A stretch of DNA of 64,000 nt. Source: Flavobacteriaceae bacterium (GTDB lineage Bacteria; Bacteroidota; Bacteroidia; Flavobacteriales; Flavobacteriaceae). Under the pieces are notes generated by a model. The model worked only from the letters and a program-made list of their open reading frames with translations, ran no database searches and was not told the origin of the DNA. The position numbers were made by a program, and so were the translations under genes. Each line of letters begins with the position of its first letter. The first letter of the stretch is position 1. The stretch covers positions 105,209 to 169,208 of the forward strand of contig JAIPBH010000001.1 in NCBI GenBank assembly GCA_021739635.1. Direction: 5' to 3'. Positions 4,750 through 55,623 of this stretch are shown one piece after another.

Positions 4750-6964
4750 CTGATTTATTGGTAGAAAGTGCATTAAACAGTTTTTTCTCAAACTCTTCTT
4801 GTTTAAAAGGCTTAGGAATAATATCTGTAAATCCTGCTTCATCAAACTCATGCATTTTATCTTCAATAGTAACAGCAGTTAAGGCAAAAATGGTTAATTG
4901 TTTATCAAAAGTTCTAATGATTTTAGTAGCTTCAATACCACTAATTCCTGGCATATGAATATCCATTAAAACAATATCATAATTGTTTGTTTTAACCATA
5001 TCAACTGCAGATTCACCATTGTCAACCACATCACAGTTAAGTTCCATTTTGGTTAAGATTTTCTTAGTAATCATTTGGTTGATTTTATTGTCTTCAACTA
5101 CTAAAACTTTCACTTTGGTTAAATCTAATTCTTTGGTTTCATTGAATTGTTTTGGAGCGGTTTCTACAATCTCTTGATCAGTATATTTTAAAGGAATTTC
5201 AAAATAAAATGTACTTCCTTTATCCAATTCACTTTTTAGATAAATTTTTCCTTTTAAAATTTCTATTAAACCTTTTACAATAGATAGTCCTAAACCAGTT
5301 CCACCGTATTTTCTGTTAATTTGTATAGAACCTTGAGAGAAACTTTCAAACATGTTTTCTTGTTTCTCTTGGCTGATGCCTATACCGTTATCTTCAACTT
5401 CAAAACGTAAGTTAAAAATGTCATTTTCTTCATTAATTTTATTAACTCTTATCCAAATGTCACCGTCTTTGGTAAACTTAATGGAGTTACCAATCAGATT
5501 AATTAATATTTGTGAAATTTTTAATTGATCGGCTATAAAGTTTTCAGGCAGTCCTTTTTGATATTCTAAATGAAGCTTAGTATTGTTATCTAAAGCCGAG
5601 TTATTTAATGCTAAAATGATATTATTTATTTTCTTTTTAAGGTTGAAAGATTCTGGCTCAATTTCAACTTTATTGGCTTCAATTTTATTGATTTGTAATA
5701 TGTCATTAATGAAAGTAAGCAAGTAATCGCCTGAAAATTTAAGAGATTTTAAATGCTGAACTTGTTCTGGCCTAGGATTTTCTTCAAGTAACATATTACT
5801 TAAACCAGTTACAGCATAAAGCGGTGTACGCAATTCGTGAGTTACCGTAGATAAAAAATTAGCCTTTGTTTTTGATGCTAGTTCAGCTTTTTCTTTAGCA
5901 ATAATAAGTTCCGCATTTTTTTTGTGGAGCATATTATTAGTTTTTAGTCTAATATTATTGTTTTTATAAAGTGATAGTGTTAATAGTGATAAAATAGTTA
6001 TTAAAGCTACACTCAAAATTGAAATTAATGTGCTTAAGTCATTTTTGCTTTTGGCTTCTTTTAATTCTTCTTCTTGTTTTTTATTATTTTCAATTTTGTC
6101 ATTAATTAAAAACTGAATTTTCTTTTCGGGCGATAAATTTTCTCTTTTAATTTTTCTAAGAGAATCAGAAAGTTTAAGATGATTTCTTAAATAACTGTTA
6201 GAAAGCATATAAGCTCCTTGGCTTTGAGTAATATCACTTAAAACTAAATAGCCTTCGTTTAAAATATCACCAAAATTGTTTTTCTTAGCTATAGTTACAC
6301 CTTCGTTTGCATACGAAATAGCTTTTTCATTATCACCTAAAATATTAAATACTTTTCCGTGATTTATAAGTGCGCTACTTTCAATTTTTGGTAAATTAAT
6401 TCGTTTGGCTAAAGCAAGTGCTTGTTCAATAAGCGACCTAGCTTTATTAAAATCTTTTAGTTTAATATATATTTCACCTTCACTTAACAAAACATCGGCT
6501 AAATTGTTTTTTAAGTCTTCTTGTTCAAAAAGGGTTTGTGCAGAAATATAATAATCTATGGCTAGTTTATAATTCTTTTTACTTTTATAAATATCACCAA
6601 ATGTTTTATAAGAATTTGCAAGATTAGCATTGTCTTTTGTAAAACGTTGAACTTCAATGGCTTTATTGGTTGAAATGATTGCTTCGTCTAACTCTTCAAT
6701 AATAAGTTGAAGTTTTCCTTTTTTTGAATAAATAAGCCCAATACTTGTTTTGTCATCAATTTTTTGAGCTATCTCTAAAGCTTCATCTAGTTTATTTTGT
6801 GCTTCAAAGTAATTAAATTTTTCAATATCATATTCTGATTGAGAAATTTTATAATTTATGGTGTTTTGTAGTATTTCAGGGTCTTTCTCAATAGAATCTT
6901 GAGATGTTACACTAAAAGTTAACAACATAAAAACGGCTAAAAAGTATGTATGGATTCGGGTCAT
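4739..6964 (-). CDS. hybrid sensor histidine kinase/response regulator with periplasmic TPR repeats
   Basis: Signal peptide, TPR-like repeats, a TM segment, H-box THELRTPL, HATPase G-box GGTGLGLSIV, and a C-terminal receiver (VLVVEDN...DIVLMDIHMPG). Confidence 0.85.
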   Translation of the reverse strand: MTRIHTYFLAVFMLLTFSVTSQDSIEKDPEILQNTINYKISQSEYDIEKFNYFEAQNKLDEALEIAQKIDDKTSIGLIYSKKGKLQLIIEELDEAIISTNKAIEVQRFTKDNANLANSYKTFGDIYKSKKNYKLAIDYYISAQTLFEQEDLKNNLADVLLSEGEIYIKLKDFNKARSLIEQALALAKRINLPKIESSALINHGKVFNILGDNEKAISYANEGVTIAKKNNFGDILNEGYLVLSDITQSQGAYMLSNSYLRNHLKLSDSLRKIKRENLSPEKKIQFLINDKIENNKKQEEELKEAKSKNDLSTLISILSVALITILSLLTLSLYKNNNIRLKTNNMLHKKNAELIIAKEKAELASKTKANFLSTVTHELRTPLYAVTGLSNMLLEENPRPEQVQHLKSLKFSGDYLLTFINDILQINKIEANKVEIEPESFNLKKKINNIILALNNSALDNNTKLHLEYQKGLPENFIADQLKISQILINLIGNSIKFTKDGDIWIRVNKINEENDIFNLRFEVEDNGIGISQEKQENMFESFSQGSIQINRKYGGTGLGLSIVKGLIEILKGKIYLKSELDKGSTFYFEIPLKYTDQEIVETAPKQFNETKELDLTKVKVLVVEDNKINQMITKKILTKMELNCDVVDNGESAVDMVKTNNYDIVLMDIHMPGISGIEATKIIRTFDKQLTIFALTAVTIEDKMHEFDEAGFTDIIPKPFKQEEFEKKLFNALSTNKSVTS

Positions 6965-17045: not shown

Positions 17046-19676
17046 ATGCAAATTCCATCAAAATATGATGCAAGTCAGGTAGAAAGTAAATGGTATGAGT
17101 ACTGGATGAAACATCATTTTTTTCATTCAGAACCAGATGAAAGAGAACCATATACTATAGTGATTCCTCCGCCTAATGTTACAGGTATTTTACATATGGG
17201 GCATATGCTTAATAATACTATTCAGGATGTTTTAATTCGTCGCGCTCGTTTACAAGGAAAAAACGCTTGTTGGGTTCCTGGTACAGACCATGCATCTATT
17301 GCTACAGAAGCAAAGGTAGTTGCTAAACTAAAAGAACAAGGTATTGATAAAAACAATTTATCTCGTGAAGAGTTTTTAAAACACGCTTGGGATTGGACAC
17401 ATGAGTATGGTGGTGTAATTCTTGAGCAGTTAAAAAAACTAGGTTGCTCATGTGATTGGGATAGAACCAAATTCACAATGGATGATGACATGAGTGAAGC
17501 TGTTATAAAAGTGTTTGTTGATTTGTATAATAAAGGTTTGATTTATCGTGGTTACCGAATGGTTAATTGGGATCCGGAAGCAAAAACAACCCTTTCTGAT
17601 GAAGAAGTTATTTATGAAGAACGCCAAGGATTATTATACTATATAAAATATCAAGTTGAAGGCACTAATGATGCTTTAACCATAGCAACAACACGTCCTG
17701 AAACCATTTTTGGCGATACCGCTATTTGTATTAACCCAAATGATGACCGTTTTAAGCATCTTAAAGGAAAAAAAGCCATTGTTCCCATTTGTAATAGAGT
17801 CATTCCAATTATTGAAGACGATTATGTGGATGTTGAATTTGGTACAGGTTGTTTAAAAGTAACGCCAGCTCATGATGAAAATGATAAGGTTTTAGGTGAA
17901 AAGCACCAGCTTCAAGTTATCGATATTTTTAATGATAATGCAACTTTAAATAGTTTTGGATTGCATTATGAAGGAAAAGATAGGTTTTTAGTTAGAAAAG
18001 AAATTCAAAAAGAATTAGAAGAAAAAGAGCACTTAGTAAAAACAGAAAATTACCTTAATAAAGTAGGTACTAGTGAGCGAACTAAAGCAGTTATTGAGCC
18101 TAGATTATCAGACCAATGGTTTCTTAAAATGGAAGACTTGGTAAAACCTGCTATTAAAGCTGTTTTAGAAGATGGCGACGTCAAATTATTTCCTAAAAAG
18201 TTTGAAAACACCTATCGCCATTGGATGGAAAATATTCGTGACTGGAATATTTCTCGTCAATTATTATGGGGACAACAAATTCCCGCATATTACTATGGTG
18301 ATGGAAAAGAAGATTTTGTAGTGGCTGAAACCATTGAACAAGCTCTAACGCTAGCAAAACAAAAAACCAACAACCAACAACTAACAACTAACAACTTAAT
18401 TCAAGACACCGACGCTTTAGATACTTGGTTTTCATCATGGTTATGGCCAATTAGTGTATTTGATGGTATTCGGTATCCTGAAAATAAAGACATTCAATAT
18501 TATTATCCAACCAACGATTTAGTAACTGGTCCAGATATTTTATTCTTTTGGGTAGCTAGAATGATTATTGCAGGTTATGAATACAGAGATGAAAAACCAT
18601 TTCAAAATGTATATTTAACCGGTTTAGTGCGTGATAAACAGCGCAGAAAAATGAGTAAATCCTTAGGGAATTCTCCTGATGCCTTAAAACTGATTGAAGA
18701 GTTTGGAGCCGATGGCGTTAGAGTAGGCTTATTGTTAAGTTCTGCTGCTGGGAATGATTTGTTGTTTGATGAAGCTTTATGCCAACAAGGTAAAGGGTTT
18801 GCTAATAAAATATGGAATGCTTTCAGATTAATTCAAGGTTGGGAAGTAGCCGATATAGAACAGCCTAAATCCTCAAAAATTGCGATTGATTGGTTTGAAG
18901 CTAAATTCCAGGAAACTTTACTAACTATTGAAGACCATTTTAGTAAATACCGCATAAGCGATGCGCTAATGGAAACCTATAAGTTAATATGGAATGATTT
19001 CTGCTCATGGTTTTTAGAAATGATAAAACCAGAATACCAAAAGCCAATTGATAAAACCACCTATCAAGCAGCCATTGCAATTTTAGAAAATAATCTGAAA
19101 ATATTACATCCATTTATGCCGTTTTTAACTGAAGATATTTGGCAATATATTTCTGAAAGAACACCTAAAGAGGCTTTAATTATTTCTAAATGGCCAAAAT
19201 CTGTAAACTATAATAAAGCCTTAATTTCAGAATTTGATTTTGCTTCTGAAGTCGTTTCAGGCATCAGAAATATTAGAAAAGAGAAAAATATCCCTTTTAA
19301 AGATGCCATTCAGTTTTCTGTAATTAATAATGAAAACGTTACATCTACTTTTGATGAAGTTATTGTAAAATTGGGTAATATAGAATCTATCAATTACACA
19401 ACACAAGCCATTGAAGGCGCGTTAACGTTTAGAGTAAAATCAAATGAGTATTTTATTCCAATGGCAGGTGCCATTGATATTGAAACAGAAATTAAAAAGC
19501 TAACGGAAGAGTTAAACTATACCGAAGGCTTTTTAAAATCAGTTCAAAACAAACTTTCAAACGAACGATTTGTTGCTGGTGCGCCTGAACAGGTTATTAC
19601 AAACGAAAGAAATAAGGAAGCCGATGCATTAGCAAAAATAGAAACTATTAAAGCTAGTTTGCAGAGTTTGAAATAA
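17046..19676 (+). CDS. valS: valine--tRNA ligase
   Basis: HMGH (HIGH) and KMSKS motifs and a C-terminal coiled coil. ATG 17046 (MQIPSKYD...) is preferred over the TTG at 17013 used by the ORF track. Confidence 0.95.
18368..18395 (+). repeat. four tandem YAACAAC heptamers inside the valS reading frame
   Basis: CAACAAC CAACAAC TAACAAC TAACAAC read directly. This is the same unit as the intergenic array at 54298-54346. Confidence 0.85.
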
Positions 19677-31280: not shown

Positions 31281-31356
31281 TTCATTGTTAATTTTTCATT
31301 ATCAATTATCAATTGTCAATTATCAATTGTCAATTGTCAATTATCAATTGTCAAAG
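31281..31356. repeat. RTCAATT heptamer tandem array (7 clean units at 31301-31349, degenerate flanks)
   Basis: ATCAATT ATCAATT GTCAATT ATCAATT GTCAATT GTCAATT ATCAATT read directly. Lies in the ddl-coaD spacer and covers the ddl stop codon. Confidence 0.9.
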
Positions 31357-43262: not shown

Positions 43263-43295
43263 GAACAAAACCCGAACAAAACCCGAACAAAACCC
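43263..43295 (+). repeat. 3 x 11-mer GAACAAAACCC tandem repeat
   Basis: Three perfect units read directly. Confidence 0.95.
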
Positions 43296-43312
43296 CTACT
43301 TTTTTTGGCACG

Positions 43313-43372
43313 TGTGTCAATATGTGTCAATATGTGTCAATGTGTGTCAATGTGTGTCAATATGTGTCAATA
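43313..43372 (+). repeat. 6 x 10-mer TGTGTCAATR tandem repeat (iteron-like)
   Basis: TGTGTCAATA x2, TGTGTCAATG x2, TGTGTCAATA x2 read directly. Confidence 0.95.
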
Positions 43373-43380
43373 GCTATCAC

Positions 43381-43431
43381 GGGGTTGCATATGTGAAGCC
43401 TGCTTTATAGCTTCACATTATTATTAACCCC
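43381..43431 (+). promoter_or_regulatory. 50-nt imperfect inverted repeat (cruciform/hairpin) upstream of the 43448 ORF
   Basis: Outer stem GGGGTT/AACCCC. Inner 9-bp stem ATGTGAAGC (43391-43399) / GCTTCACAT (43410-43418) with loop CTGCTTTATA. Confidence 0.5.
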
Positions 43432-43447
43432 TAAATATGTAAAAATC

Positions 43448-44092
43448 ATGGGAACATTTAGTAAAGGCATCCTTGGAGGCTTCTCCGGAAAAGTGGGCAA
43501 CGTTGTGGGTGCACGTTGGCGAGGTAAAGATATTATGCGCAGTTTACCACAGCGAGGTACCTACTTACCTACACAAGCACAATTAGACCAGCGCGACCGG
43601 TTTAAAACGGCTATTTTATTTTTAACGCCAATTAAAGACATTGTATCGGCTTATTTTGGCAAGCAGCAAGGCGATAAAAGCACCTTTAATTTGGCAACAG
43701 GCTACCACATTAAGTATGCCTTATTGCCAGATGCTATCGAGGGGTATGTTATTGACTACCCCAAAGTACTGATAGGTAAAGGTGATTTGCGTGGACTTGC
43801 CAATGGCAGTGTAAGCCCAGATACCAACCAAGAGCTTACCATTGCTTGGGATGATAATAGCGGGCAAGGTAATGCCGCCGCTACTGATGAGCTGGTGGTT
43901 GTGGTGTACTGTGAGGCACTCGATTTGTTTGAAACGGCAAACCCTGCTGGCACGCGTGATGTGGTTACGGTGCAAATGCAGTTACCTGCTTACTGGGCAG
44001 GGCAAGAGGTGCGCGTTTGGGCTACTTTTGTTACTGCCGACCAAAAACTGGCTGCTACCAGTACGTATCTGGGAGCTGTAACGCTTACTTAA
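43448..44092 (+). CDS. hypothetical protein, GC-rich orphan (I recall it as DUF6266-like; unverified)
   Basis: 214-aa ORF with a Gly/Lys/Arg-rich N-terminus MGTFSKGILGGFSGKVGNVVGARWRGKD. About 50% GC against ~30% in the flanks. Followed by a strong hairpin. Confidence 0.6.
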   Translation: MGTFSKGILGGFSGKVGNVVGARWRGKDIMRSLPQRGTYLPTQAQLDQRDRFKTAILFLTPIKDIVSAYFGKQQGDKSTFNLATGYHIKYALLPDAIEGYVIDYPKVLIGKGDLRGLANGSVSPDTNQELTIAWDDNSGQGNAAATDELVVVVYCEALDLFETANPAGTRDVVTVQMQLPAYWAGQEVRVWATFVTADQKLAATSTYLGAVTLT

Positions 44093-44104
44093 TCATAGTT
44101 TTTA

Positions 44105-44150
44105 ACAGATTGCTTTTTACCTTATTGCGTGGTACGAAGCAATCTGTTTT
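44105..44150 (+). terminator. rho-independent terminator after the 43448-44092 ORF
   Basis: 11-bp perfect stem ACAGATTGCTT (44105-44115) / AAGCAATCTGT (44137-44147) followed by TTTTATT. The loop is 21 nt, which is long. Confidence 0.55.
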
Positions 44151-44167
44151 ATTGTGTTTGTTATCAT

Positions 44168-44195
44168 GAGATTGCTTCACTAGGTTCGCAATGAC
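44168..44195 (-). repeat. GTCATTGCGA..GAAGCAATCTC hairpin motif (minus orientation)
   Basis: The reverse complement reads GTCATTGCGAACCTAGTGAAGCAATCTC. Both ends are identical to the copy at 35794-35821. Confidence 0.6.
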
Positions 44196-44209
44196 GGTTT
44201 AATGGCTTT

Positions 44210-44458
44210 TTAAACAGCCTCACTTTGGTTTATATAGTGGTTTTCTTGTAATAGAATGTTTTGTAGTTTATAACCCAAAAGTTGTTGTATATACACTTTT
44301 GGAAAGTAGAGTACACCACCCATTTTAGTAAAGGGTAATTGCTTGGTTTTGCACCAGCGGTATAAGGTGCTTCTGCTTACTTTTAAAAAATGTTGGGCTT
44401 CATCTGAGGTCATCCAGTAATCATCTTTAAAAGTTGTAGGTTTTAACTGTTGTAACAT
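44210..44458 (-). CDS. helix-turn-helix (excisionase/MerR-like, HTH_17-type) DNA-binding protein
   Basis: WMTSDEAQHFLKVSRSTLYRWCKTKQLPFTKMGGVLYF matches the excisionase-family HTH pattern common in Bacteroidetes mobile elements. Confidence 0.75.
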   Translation of the reverse strand: MLQQLKPTTFKDDYWMTSDEAQHFLKVSRSTLYRWCKTKQLPFTKMGGVLYFPKVYIQQLLGYKLQNILLQENHYINQSEAV

Positions 44459-44592
44459 GATGTTTGGGGTTTAAAATAATGCAGTGGTACTTTTTACATA
44501 TAACGTGCTTATAAATTTGTTAGCAAACTACATAGTTAATAAAAAGCCTTTAAATAAAAAATACTTACTTGTGCGTATTTTTTTGTTGAGGT

Positions 44593-44981
44593 GTTCGGTG
44601 GTCAGTGGTCAGTATTCAGTGTTCAGTGGTCAGTGATTTTAATCATTAATCATTAATCATTAATTATCAATTATAATGTCACCCTGAGCGCAGTCGAAGG
44701 GCAGTGTTCAGTGTTCAGTATTCAGTGTTCGGTATTCAGTGTTCAGTGGTCAGTATTCAGTGTTCAGTATTCAGTGGTCAGTGTTCAGTGGTCAGTGTTC
44801 AGTGATTTTAATTGTTAATCATTAATCATTAATCGTTAATCGTTAATCGTTAATCATTAATCATTAATCGTTAATCATTCATCATTAATCGTTAATCATT
44901 AATCGTTAATCATTCATCGTTAATTGTCAATTATCAATTATCAATTATCAATTGTCAATTATCAATTGTAAATTGTCAATT
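44593..44981 (+). repeat. composite heptamer satellite: (RKTCRGT)n-GATTTTA-(RTTMATC)n-(RTMAATT)n, present twice
   Basis: Unit-by-unit reading gives block 1 = 6+3+1 units (44593-44672), a hairpin motif at 44678-44702, then block 2 = 14+16+8 units (44706-44981). Confidence 0.95.
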
Positions 44982-44991
44982 AAAATAACCG

Positions 44992-44999
44992 TACCTTTG
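44992..44999 (+). promoter_or_regulatory. candidate -7 promoter box for rhlE
   Basis: TACCTTTG fits TAnnTTTG. It lies 10 nt after the last heptamer and 57 nt before ATG 45056. Confidence 0.3.
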
Positions 45000-45055
45000 C
45001 AGCTAAATAAAAAAATGACACTAATAGTTAGATGGTCATTTACCAAAAACTTTAT

Positions 45056-46339
45056 ATGTCATTCAACCAATTAGGCTTATCTGAAGCCTTGCAAAAAGCT
45101 ATTAGCAAAAAAGGATATACTACCCCAAGCCCTATTCAAACAAAAGCCATCCCGCCTATATTAGAAGGGAAAGATATATTAGCTTCGGCACAAACAGGCA
45201 CCGGTAAAACAGCAGGGTTTACTTTGCCCTTATTACAATTATTATCGCAAGGGCAACCCTTAAGACAGCGCCCAGTACGAGCGTTAGTGCTTACCCCAAC
45301 TCGTGAGTTGGCAGCCCAAGTGTATGAAAACGTGAAGGAATACAGTGTGTTTCTCGATTTGCGTTCGGTCGTTATTTTTGGCGGTGTTAATCAAAATCCG
45401 CAGGTTAATCAATTACGGCAAGGGGTTGATATTTTGGTAGCCACACCGGGTCGACTTCTGGATTTGCACAATCAAGGCATGTTATCACTTTCAAAAGTAG
45501 AAATATTAGTGCTTGATGAAGCCGACCGTATGCTAGATATGGGTTTTTTACGCGATATAGAGCGCATTATGAAACTTATGCCCACCAAACGGCAAAACCT
45601 GATGTTTTCGGCAACCTTTTCACCCGATATTAAAAAGCTGGCACAAGGTATTTTAAACCATCCGGTACAGGTAGAGGCTACGCCCGAAAATACCACTGTG
45701 GAGGCCATTTCACAAAAAGTATATAAAGTAGCTAAAGGCTTAAAAACAGGCTTGATTATTAAACTAATTTCTGACGGAGATTGGAAACAAGTACTGGTGT
45801 TTACACGTACCAAACATGGCGCCAATAAACTTTGTGAAAAAATGGTGCAAGCTGGTATTACGGCCGCTGCTATACATGGTAATAAAAGTCAGGGAGCCAG
45901 AACCAAGGCCTTAAGCGGTTTTAAAACTGGTGCCGTACGCGTGTTGGTGGCTACTGATATTGCAGCTCGCGGATTGGATATTCCGTTATTGCCCCATGTG
46001 ATTAATTTTGAATTACCTAATATTCCTGAAGACTATATTCACAGAATAGGTAGAACGGGTAGAGCAGGTGCTAGTGGGGAAGCCTTATCGTTAGTAAGTG
46101 CCGATGAAACCACCTTTTTAAGAGATATTGAAAAACTGGTAGGCACGCGCTTTCCGGTTGAGATTGTAGAAGGTTTTGAACCCGACCCCAATGCATCAAC
46201 CGAGCCCGAAAAGAGACAACAACGCCAAGGTGGCAACAGAGATAAAAATAATGCTCAGCCCAAGACGTCTAACGATAAAAAATCAAATCGTCCAAAACGT
46301 AACAGAAACAAATTTTCTGACCATAAAAGGAAACCTTAA
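45056..46339 (+). CDS. rhlE: DEAD-box ATP-dependent RNA helicase (RhlE-like) with a basic C-terminal tail
   Basis: Q motif, [15 protein letters not shown] and [10 protein letters not shown] motifs. ATG 45056 ([12 protein letters not shown]) is preferred over 45032. Confidence 0.9.
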
Positions 46340-54208: not shown

Positions 54209-54288
54209 ATATAAGGTTAAAAGGTTATAAGGATATAAGGTTATAAGGATATAAGGTTAAAAGGATATAAGGTTAAAAGGTTATAAGT
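54209..54288 (+). repeat. 10 x octamer WTAWAAGG tandem array
   Basis: ATATAAGG TTAAAAGG TTATAAGG ATATAAGG TTATAAGG ATATAAGG TTAAAAGG ATATAAGG TTAAAAGG TTATAAGT read directly. Confidence 0.95.
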
Positions 54289-54297
54289 TAGTTTTAC

Positions 54298-54346
54298 TAA
54301 CAACTAACAACTAACAACTAACAACTAACAACTAACAACCAACAAC
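54298..54346 (+). repeat. 7 x heptamer YAACAAC tandem array abutting the rarA stop codon
   Basis: TAACAAC x6 then CAACAAC read directly. Its last base is the first base of the rarA stop triplet (minus strand). Confidence 0.95.
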
Positions 54347-55623
54347 TAATACCCATACTTATCTTTCCAGCGTTGTTTTAAAAAATCCTGATACGCTTTT
54401 TCGCGTGTGTTATTTCCAGGTTCATAAAGCTTTAAGCCTTTCAGGTCATCGGGCATAAACTCTTGGTTTACAAAATTATGTTCGTAGCTATGGGCATATT
54501 TATAATCTTCACCATAACCAAGCTCTTTCATTAATTTAGTTGGCGCATTTCTAATATCTAATGGCACCGATAAATCACCAGTTTCTTTTACGATCTGTTG
54601 CGCCTTACTAATAGCCATATAAGCTGCATTACTTTTAGGTGAACACGCTAAATAGGTAGCGCATTGGCTAAGAATAATTCTAGATTCTGGGTAACCAATA
54701 GTTGCAACTGCTTGAAAGGTATTATTGGCAATTACTAAAGCGGTTGGATTGGCATTGCCAATATCTTCACTGGCTAAAATTAAAAGGCGTCTGGCTATAA
54801 ACTTAACATCTTCACCACCTTCAATCATTCTGGCTAGCCAATAAACGGCAGCATTGGGGTCGCTTCCTCTAATTGATTTTATAAAAGCCGAAATAATATC
54901 ATAGTGCTGTTCACCCGTTTTATCATATCTAACGGTATTATTTTGAACTTTTTTCAGTACAGACTCATCTGTTATAATAATGTTATAAGTATCTTCTGAA
55001 TTGATGATGAGTTCAAAAATGTTTAAAAGTTTTCTAGCATCACCTCCAGAAAGTTTTAAAAGCGCATGAGTTTCTTTAAGGGTTATATTTTTTTTTGATA
55101 AATAAATATCTTGTTTAATAGCACGGTTTAAAAGAGTTTCTAAATCACTTTTATCAAACGAATTAAGAATATAAACCTGACAGCGTGATAAAAGGGCAGG
55201 AATCACTTCAAAACTTGGGTTTTCTGTAGTGGCGCCAAAAAGTGTTATCCAACCTTTTTCAACAGCTTGTAATAAAGAGTCTTGTTGAGATTTGCTAAAT
55301 CGATGAATCTCATCAATAAATAAAATAGGGTTTTTGGTGGTAAATAAGCCACCACTTTGCTTGGCTTTATCTATTACATCACGAATGTCTTTTACACCAG
55401 AATTAATAGCACTTAACGCATAAAATGGCCTTCCAGATTCATTAGCAATAATATTTGCTAAGGTTGTTTTGCCTGTTCCTGGCGGACCCCAAAAAATCAT
55501 GGAAGGAATAAGTCCTTGTTTAATTTGCTGCGTTAACGACCCTTGTTTGCCAACTAAATGAGTCTGACTCACATAGTCATTGAGAGTTTTGGGTCTTAAT
55601 CGTTCAGCTAAAGGTTCATTCAT
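54346..55623 (-). CDS. rarA: replication-associated recombination protein A (AAA+ ATPase)
   Basis: Walker [10 protein letters not shown], Walker B LFIDEIHRF, and a MgsA C-terminal domain. Confidence 0.9.
   Translation of the reverse strand: MNEPLAERLRPKTLNDYVSQTHLVGKQGSLTQQIKQGLIPSMIFWGPPGTGKTTLANIIANESGRPFYALSAINSGVKDIRDVIDKAKQSGGLFTTKNPILFIDEIHRFSKSQQDSLLQAVEKGWITLFGATTENPSFEVIPALLSRCQVYILNSFDKSDLETLLNRAIKQDIYLSKKNITLKETHALLKLSGGDARKLLNIFELIINSEDTYNIIITDESVLKKVQNNTVRYDKTGEQHYDIISAFIKSIRGSDPNAAVYWLARMIEGGEDVKFIARRLLILASEDIGNANPTALVIANNTFQAVATIGYPESRIILSQCATYLACSPKSNAAYMAISKAQQIVKETGDLSVPLDIRNAPTKLMKELGYGEDYKYAHSYEHNFVNQEFMPDDLKGLKLYEPGNNTREKAYQDFLKQRWKDKYGY

Follow-up and report, generated by a model that had tools for sequence, protein, structure and literature searches.

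An rhlE-type DEAD-box RNA helicase gene and a divergent gene for an excisionase-like HTH_17 protein flank a compound array of heptanucleotide repeats in this marine Flavobacteriaceae genome. The array was analyzed within a 64,000-nt stretch of DNA, referred to here as the window. Two heptamer modules, each with units in the order A-B-C, lie at 44593–44981 and are parted by a 25-nt motif. The features of the region, with the evidence for each, are:

44210–44458, minus strand: HTH_17 (excisionase-like) gene, divergent from rhlE (ORF, domain match)
44523–44530, minus strand: candidate −7-type box of the HTH_17 gene, TAGTTTGC (from sequence only)
44593–44634, plus strand: module 1 A array, 6 × RKTCRGT (parse, TRF, dimer count)
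44635–44677, plus strand: remainder of module 1, with the GATTTTA+ATC junction, B and C units, and ATAAT (parse)
44678–44702, plus strand: spacer 25-mer GTCACCCTGAGCGCAGTCGAAGGGC, single copy in the window
44703–44803, plus strand: module 2 A array, AGT and then 14 × RKTCRGT, the units at 44706–44803 (parse, TRF)
44804–44813, plus strand: module 2 A–B junction, GATTTTAATT (parse)
44814–44925, plus strand: module 2 B array, 16 × RTTMATC, quasi-palindrome ATTAAT+C, last unit GTTAATT (parse, TRF)
44926–44981, plus strand: module 2 C array, 8 × RTMAATT, quasi-palindrome CAATTG+T (parse, TRF)
44992–44999, plus strand: rhlE sigma-A −7 box TACCTTTG, predicted start near 45004 (invariant across four genera)
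45015–45039, plus strand: rhlE 5′-UTR hairpin, ATGAC-N15-GTCAT, conserved in four genera (alignment)
45056–46339, plus strand: rhlE-type DEAD-box RNA helicase gene (ORF, protein comparison)

Array architecture and the rhlE promoter

A unit-by-unit parse counted all of the approximately 50 seven-base units, and TRF on the window recovered the same arrays. The A units of module 1 are, in order, GTTCGGT, GGTCAGT, GGTCAGT, ATTCAGT, GTTCAGT, and GGTCAGT. They are followed after the junction by ATTAATC, ATTAATC, and ATTAATT (three B-type units, ATTAATY), one C-type unit (ATCAATT), and ATAAT. The GATTTTA+ATC junction recurs in module 2 and in three sister assemblies (L001, L002, and L004). Tandem dimers of A, B, and C units were observed 18, 15, and 14 times, versus 0.00, 0.02, and 0.11 expected from dinucleotide-preserving shuffles. 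TRF scores were 55–157, and the arrays consist of head-to-tail units of 1–11 nt in tracts longer than chance, the criterion for long simple sequence repeats (LSSRs). The first-pass annotation had described the array unit by unit, and its description was correct to the base by independent parse and TRF. Its view that the module is duplicated was borne out by a 195-nt higher-order period in TRF and by the three modules of L002. The A/G alternation that it claimed at unit position 1 did not hold in the window, where the position is polymorphic without strict alternation; A and G alternate with a period of 14 in module 3 of L002.

The flavobacterial sigma-A −7 box, TAnnTTTG, sits at −12 to −5 (PMC9723704); the same consensus and a −33 element, TTTG, are given in PMC2483708. 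At rhlE, TACCTTTG begins 10 nt past the array and lies 57 nt before the ATG at 45056, and the array ends upstream of the −7 box, 74 nt before the ATG. From the position of the −7 box, transcription is predicted to start near 45004, which places the array at approximately −23 to −411. In an alignment of the rhlE upstream regions of four genera, conservation starts abruptly at GTACCTTTGC and continues to the ATG, and nothing further upstream is conserved. The array is therefore predicted to lie upstream of the promoter and outside the leader. The −7-box-like sequence noted in the first pass was supported as such, because GTACCTTTGC and the leader are the sole upstream sequence conserved in the four genera. 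The accompanying idea of a long 5′ leader containing the array was discarded, since the conserved −7 box lies downstream of the array and array-free relatives keep the promoter and leader. On the HTH_17 side, TAGTTTGC fits TAnnTTGY, a described variant of the −7 box (PMC9723704).

The ATGAC-N15-GTCAT hairpin lies within the predicted 52-nt leader of rhlE and could have a regulatory role in the helicase mRNA.

Alleles, relatives, and other arrays

Five independent assemblies of one species, from different samples, were compared (the window, L001, L002, L003, and L004). RhlE in L001–L004 is 99–100% identical to that of the window, and the flanks are nearly identical. With the reservation that copy numbers of arrays exceeding read length are uncertain in short-read assemblies, the window allele has 20 A, 17 B, and 9 C units (C 8–9), two junctions, and one motif, and L002 has 23 A, 16 B, and approximately 31 C units in three modules, with three junctions and two long-form motifs. 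The intergenic region upstream of rhlE is 909 nt in length in L002 versus 573 nt in the window. L004 carries a short allele of approximately 5 B and 5 C units, with an array small enough to fit within one read. The L003 contig, which is broken inside the array, contains at least 19 C units, and in L001 the module 1 units are in a different order. Contigs L001, L003, and L004 all end inside the array.

Copy number thus differs among the sister strains, the check for polymorphism proposed in the first pass, and does so in 7-nt and module-sized (~195-nt) steps. The four alleles that extend as far as the promoter (window, L002, L003, and L004) have the same sequence over the last three C units and the 10-nt linker, and unit numbers vary upstream of these. 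Because the array–promoter junction is identical in all alleles, copy number cannot alter −33/−7 spacing, and the suggestion that array length sets promoter geometry was abandoned. The array is real and hypervariable, since the five assemblies share its architecture and differ in unit numbers. An assembly artifact, which had been considered earlier, does not account for the same architecture in five independent assemblies, one allele of which (L004) fits within a read.

The RhlE protein of the window matches one from a Flavobacteriaceae MAG at 100% identity, and Gaetbulibacter, Yeosuana, and Mariniflexile are its closest relatives among named genera. No arrays were found upstream of rhlE in five lineages (Gaetbulibacter M235, a Baltic lineage, a contig with 86% identity, a "Yeosuana sp." MAG, and Mariniflexile), and array-free relatives (84–92% RhlE identity) retain the −7 box and leader. 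As judged from the promoters compared, the array is not needed for the rhlE promoter, and it apparently exerts no control over the cold-shock-type helicase.

Yeosuana sp. AK3 (RhlE 88% identical) has arrays at the same two positions as the window, with different units. The first part of its rhlE upstream region reads GAACAAACCTC GAACAAAACCC GAACAAACCCC ... TGTGTCAATA ... (GTTTAATC)x3, and the next part reads GTTGAGGTG TTTCATT GTTAATC GTTCATT GTTAATT GTCAATT G (AACTTTAT)x5.8 TTTTTAACCGTACCTTTGCA. This stretch is equivalent to window 43263–43372 joined straight to 44585–44999. B- and C-type units are present in only one or two copies, and GTTGAGGTG with the five heptamers that follow it is read, by resemblance, as a proto-array without the hairpin motif. 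The contiguity in Yeosuana implies that the pair of DUF6266 and HTH_17 genes (~43373–44584) was inserted into a repeat-rich region or was lost from such a region. The pair has 38% GC content versus 31% for the window, and Yeosuana AK3 has repeats at rhlE without the DUF6266 and HTH_17 genes (L006, 9760–9840). The rhlE upstream region looks like an insertion hot spot. A PHROGs search with DUF6266 returned no match. Genes beyond the pair differ even within the species (window versus L002). Gaetbulibacter carries IS110 and IS3 elements in this upstream region.

The window contains further arrays. With a period of 5–12 and at least four copies, 8 to 9 arrays were found in the 64 kb, and there are at least six short-period array loci. 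Those outside the rhlE intergenic region include:

18365–18396, plus strand: heptamer array AACYAAC × 4.6 (AACCAAC/AACTAAC), in frame inside valS
31284–31354, plus strand: second C-type array, ATTGTCA/ATTATCA, ~10 units, between ddl and a cytidylyltransferase gene, overlapping the ddl stop codon
43263–43372, plus strand: 11-mer GAACAAAACCC × 3 and 10-mer TGTGTCAATA × 6, upstream of the DUF6266 gene (TRF)
54210–54349, plus strand: 8-mer array TATAAGGT × 10 and then ACTAACA × 7.7, filling a convergent intergenic region

Array contexts in this genome are therefore divergent, tandem, convergent, and coding. Compared with Thermus ValRS (1gax), the 13 residues encoded by the valS array belong to a variable insertion. 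The ddl/cytidylyltransferase intergenic region is only ~18 nt in the relatives L007 and L133, and their convergent region is 3–10 nt. Orthologous arrays, an 8-mer followed by a 7-mer, are found at the convergent site in Yeosuana AK3 (L006, 17648–17752). Their edges are common to both genera (TAGTTTTACTAACA ... ACCAACAACTAATACCC), and their interiors have been homogenized to ACTAACA or CCTAACA, depending on the genome, a pattern taken here as concerted evolution of orthologous arrays. The concern that the array might be unique to one locus or strain was thus dispelled by the tandem-repeat scan of the window, the sister strains, and Yeosuana. Periods 7 and 8 also dominate in an 867-kb sample of mostly Bacteroidota DNA gathered for another purpose, accounting for 26 and 14 of the 63 arrays with four or more copies. 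In the array upstream of the DUF6266 gene, the 10-mer TGTGTCAATA reads TATTGACACA on the minus strand and contains TTGACA. The three 11-mers GAACAAAACCC and the T-run after them are kept in Yeosuana.

The spacer hairpin motif and (CAATTRT)n arrays

The spacer between the modules is one copy of a dispersed motif, GTCA-CCC-TGAGCGNAGTCGAA-GGG, which occurs once in the window. Its exact 24-nt form, GTCACCCTGAGCGNAGTCGAAGGG (window 44678–44701), was found in more than 120 genome stretches of many phyla with unrelated flanks (L013–L132), including Bacteroidota, Clostridia, Chloroflexi, Zixibacteria, Ignavibacteria, Gemmatimonadales, and Planctomycetota, and in 17 viral contigs (L138–L154). A search with the loop only (TGAGCGNAGTCGAA) returned 201 copies, of which 180 have complementary 3-nt stems and 186 carry the 5′ GTCA. 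At least 11 different complementary triplet pairs occur among the 55 copies without CCC, so that the stem covaries. The first-pass annotation had called the 25-mer a hairpin. Alone, it folds no better than shuffles (−4.9 kcal/mol, z = +0.6); the hairpin is supported by the covariation among its relatives elsewhere.

Copies of the motif often form inverted doublets or tandem clusters, and their orientation relative to flanking genes shows a weak bias. In L002, 53 nt replace the apical GCAGTC, and this long form is duplicated with the module (5075–5146 and 5271–5342). Apical extensions are also found in L017, L028, L058, L068, L071, L075, and L118. A tie between the motif and neighboring arrays was rejected, with 17 of 141 copies (12%) near arrays versus 316 of 2199 control non-coding positions (14%). 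An Rfam scan of the whole window at gathering scores gave no matches, and Rfam searches at E-values up to 10 with the array regions and with a doublet of the motif gave noise only. Hammerhead and K-turn readings of the motif and of the 53-nt long form were rejected as misfits to the core consensus by hand. No paper containing the motif sequence, and no name for it, was found in the searchable literature.

C-type arrays were found next to −7 boxes elsewhere. A metagenome scan with the pattern (CAATTRT)3CAATT returned at least 120 contigs (L155–L274) with GC contents of 29–63%. TAnnTTTG lies 5–8 nt past the last CAATT in 13 of 122 distinct (CAATTRT)n arrays (examples are L160, L164, L176, L188, L217, and L234), with TTG-to-TA spacers of 18–21 nt, mostly 19. 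The mirrored arrangement was seen in 3 of the 122, and approximately one abutting box is estimated by chance. In arrays with a single G-unit (L160, L234, and L194), that unit is exactly at a −33-compatible position, and the arrays of L160 and L186 are flanked on both sides by −7 boxes in divergent orientation. C-type arrays are thus placed non-randomly beside −7 boxes in other Bacteroidota, which indicates that this unit type can be functional.

The same spacing is not found at rhlE. TTG-to-box spacers peak sharply at 19 nt among 54 candidate promoters of this clade, and the TTGs of the rhlE array lie 16, 23, and 37 nt from the −7 box, with none at approximately 19 nt. The array is therefore 3–4 nt out of register. 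The earlier proposal that TTGs at unit junctions serve as −33 elements is plausible in general, given the 13 other Bacteroidota contigs with spacers of 18–21 nt, and does not fit rhlE itself, where the nearest spacers are 16 and 23 nt.

In L167, L169, and L193, (CAATTRT)n is paired with a reverse-complement array ~50 nt away, forming a long interrupted intergenic inverted repeat.

A broader reading, which we regard as possible though doubtful, touches both sets of observations. Bacteroidota heptamer arrays would be more than debris of slippage and would be evolvable promoter modules, with (CAATTRT)n repeatedly donating a −33 TTG at 19 nt, in some cases to a pair of divergent promoters, and surplus units harmless upstream. 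Separately, the GTCA-NNN-TGAGCGNAGTCGAA-N′N′N′ hairpin would be an undescribed structured element common to many phyla.

Known repeat systems and origin of the array

LSSRs of 5–11 nt are mostly intergenic, are sporadic across lineages, and have been ascribed to polymerase slippage (Mrazek et al. 2007, as summarized in PMC4679880), and heptanucleotides are the commonest (PMC4679880). The rhlE array resembles them in its head-to-tail 7-nt units and intergenic location, and periods 7 and 8 dominate in the present sample too. The copy-number polymorphism of LSSRs was likewise found, with 8–9, 31, at least 19, and 5 C units in the window, L002, L003, and L004, and 17, 16, and 5 B units in the window, L002, and L004. 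Unlike LSSRs, the rhlE locus is compound: its three families follow a fixed order and are duplicated as a higher-order module, in which a hairpin motif is embedded.

The first pass knew of no such arrays in Flavobacteriia, and in this it was mistaken. Long heptamer arrays have been described in Gramella forsetii, Aequorivita sublithincola, and Elizabethkingia anophelis (MacGregor 2015, PMC4679880), so the class was already known there. In those genomes, several heptamers share one intergenic region, the arrays are absent from close relatives, and contigs break at them (PMC4679880). The rhlE locus is alike in its mixed heptamers within one intergenic region, in the short repeat-free region of relatives, and in its broken contigs. 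It differs in its units, which match TAACTGA-type units at best in 5–6 of 7 positions; the window holds no TAACTGA tandem dimers on either strand and seven singletons. It differs also in that strain-level alleles and orthologous arrays across genera are documented. In Beggiatoaceae, the TAACTGA pattern lies a few nt upstream of start codons, in contrast to the rhlE array and its distance of 74 nt from the ATG. By its units and setting, the rhlE array is placed in a repeat class known in this group, with units of its own.

The STRR repeats of cyanobacteria have the consensus heptamers CCCCAGT, TTGGTCA, and CAACAGT. They too consist of heptamers in tandem and are mainly intergenic, and a genome contains several families of them. 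They belong to another phylum, and no tandem dimers of the three heptamers were found in the window; a single mismatch separates the A variant GGTCAGT from TTGGTCA, a resemblance only. REPs are lineage-specific. The spacer motif recalls REP/BIME elements in being a short hairpin that is dispersed, begins with an invariant GTCA, and often occurs in inverted doublets and clusters, and differs from them in being identical across many phyla, with a conserved loop and a variable, covarying stem.

The locus is likely a hypervariable compound heptanucleotide satellite (A RKTCRGT, B RTTMATC, and C RTMAATT) in unconstrained DNA between the divergent core promoters of HTH_17 and rhlE. The array is probably a by-product of replication slippage and not a switch for the helicase gene. 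It would have grown from a stretch with one or two B- or C-type units, as in Yeosuana AK3, through 7-nt steps by replication slippage and module steps of ~195 nt by unequal recombination. The quasi-palindromic B and C units may favor slipped hairpins. The B array folds as DNA at −8.2 kcal/mol (z = −4.5), and the C array likewise folds better than shuffles (z ~ −4.5). Hairpin formation was rejected as a general cause, as the ACTAACA and 8-mer arrays fold no better than shuffles; with only B and C folding beyond shuffles, it is not a general requirement. The arrays would reflect a lineage-wide propensity rather than a device of the rhlE locus. Any effect on expression is probably small and indirect, acting via inter-promoter distance or the AT-rich upstream region. 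Two genera retain arrays at orthologous sites, a persistence that is not expected of purely neutral bacterial DNA and could involve selection.

Functional alternatives were weighed against slippage. The array could be a promoter module at rhlE itself, in which the C array supplies a −33 TTG, an AT-rich UP-like region, or both, and slippage upstream is tolerated. The (CAATTRT)n arrays that abut TAnnTTTG (13 of 122, versus 3 mirrored), the single G-units and divergent boxes among them, and the 19-nt peak of the clade argue for this reading. However, the rhlE linker is 10 nt and not 5–8 nt, its TTGs have spacers of 16 and 23 nt, the corresponding place in Yeosuana is occupied by an 8-mer array free of TTG, and four other lineages keep the promoter without an array or a conserved −33. 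We consider such a role rather unlikely. Unit number might instead switch or grade expression of rhlE or HTH_17, as at a contingency locus. Phase variation through heptanucleotide repeats is established for hmw1A and hmw2A of Haemophilus influenzae, where copy number varies by isolate and expression is graded by a tract located between the promoter and the start codon (PMC8262952 and PMC12721329). The strong unit-number differences among strains of one species are consistent with this. Contingency tracts lie in a promoter spacer, 5′ UTR, or reading frame, whereas the rhlE tract is upstream of the −33 region, outside the −33/−7 spacer and the predicted transcript, and meets the promoter at an invariant junction. 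Neither flanking gene encodes a surface antigen, one specifying a helicase of housekeeping type and the other a small HTH protein, and similar arrays fill a convergent intergenic region that is free of promoters. A rheostat at this locus is improbable.

Proteins of the HTH_17/excisionase type typically bind direct repeats, and the array begins ~65 nt upstream of the putative HTH_17 promoter. The repeats might thus be iterons on which this protein, or a nucleoid protein, polymerizes. Against this stand the Yeosuana repeats at the same place without the DUF6266 and HTH_17 genes, the C-type arrays at an unrelated locus of the window and in more than 120 unrelated metagenome contigs, and the three differing unit sequences, and we give iterons very little weight. 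An assembly artifact, or an array brought in by the mobile 24-nt hairpin motif instead of grown in place, would fit the contigs that break inside the array (L001, L003, and L004) and the dispersal of the motif, which amplifies in tandem elsewhere. The shared architecture of five assemblies from different samples, the short L004 allele within read length, the Yeosuana proto-array without the motif, and the lack of motif enrichment near arrays (12% versus 14% in controls) speak against both and make them highly improbable. The A–B junction had no matches in a JGI metagenome scan, in a collection evidently without the source sample of L002, so dispersal of the module is unsupported.

As a slippage-grown satellite, the locus is a well-documented natural case of bacterial satellite evolution, with 7-nt slippage, module duplication, and concerted evolution across genera, and the array explains the contig breaks upstream of rhlE in this group. 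Were the promoter-module reading true, the rhlE array would be an overgrown and slightly out-of-register module, and it would have persisted in two genera through selection on the upstream DNA of the promoter. The repeated, phase-locked positioning of (CAATTRT)n against −7 boxes may outweigh the rhlE locus in importance, and the 24-nt hairpin motif, identical across phyla, may matter more than the rhlE array itself.
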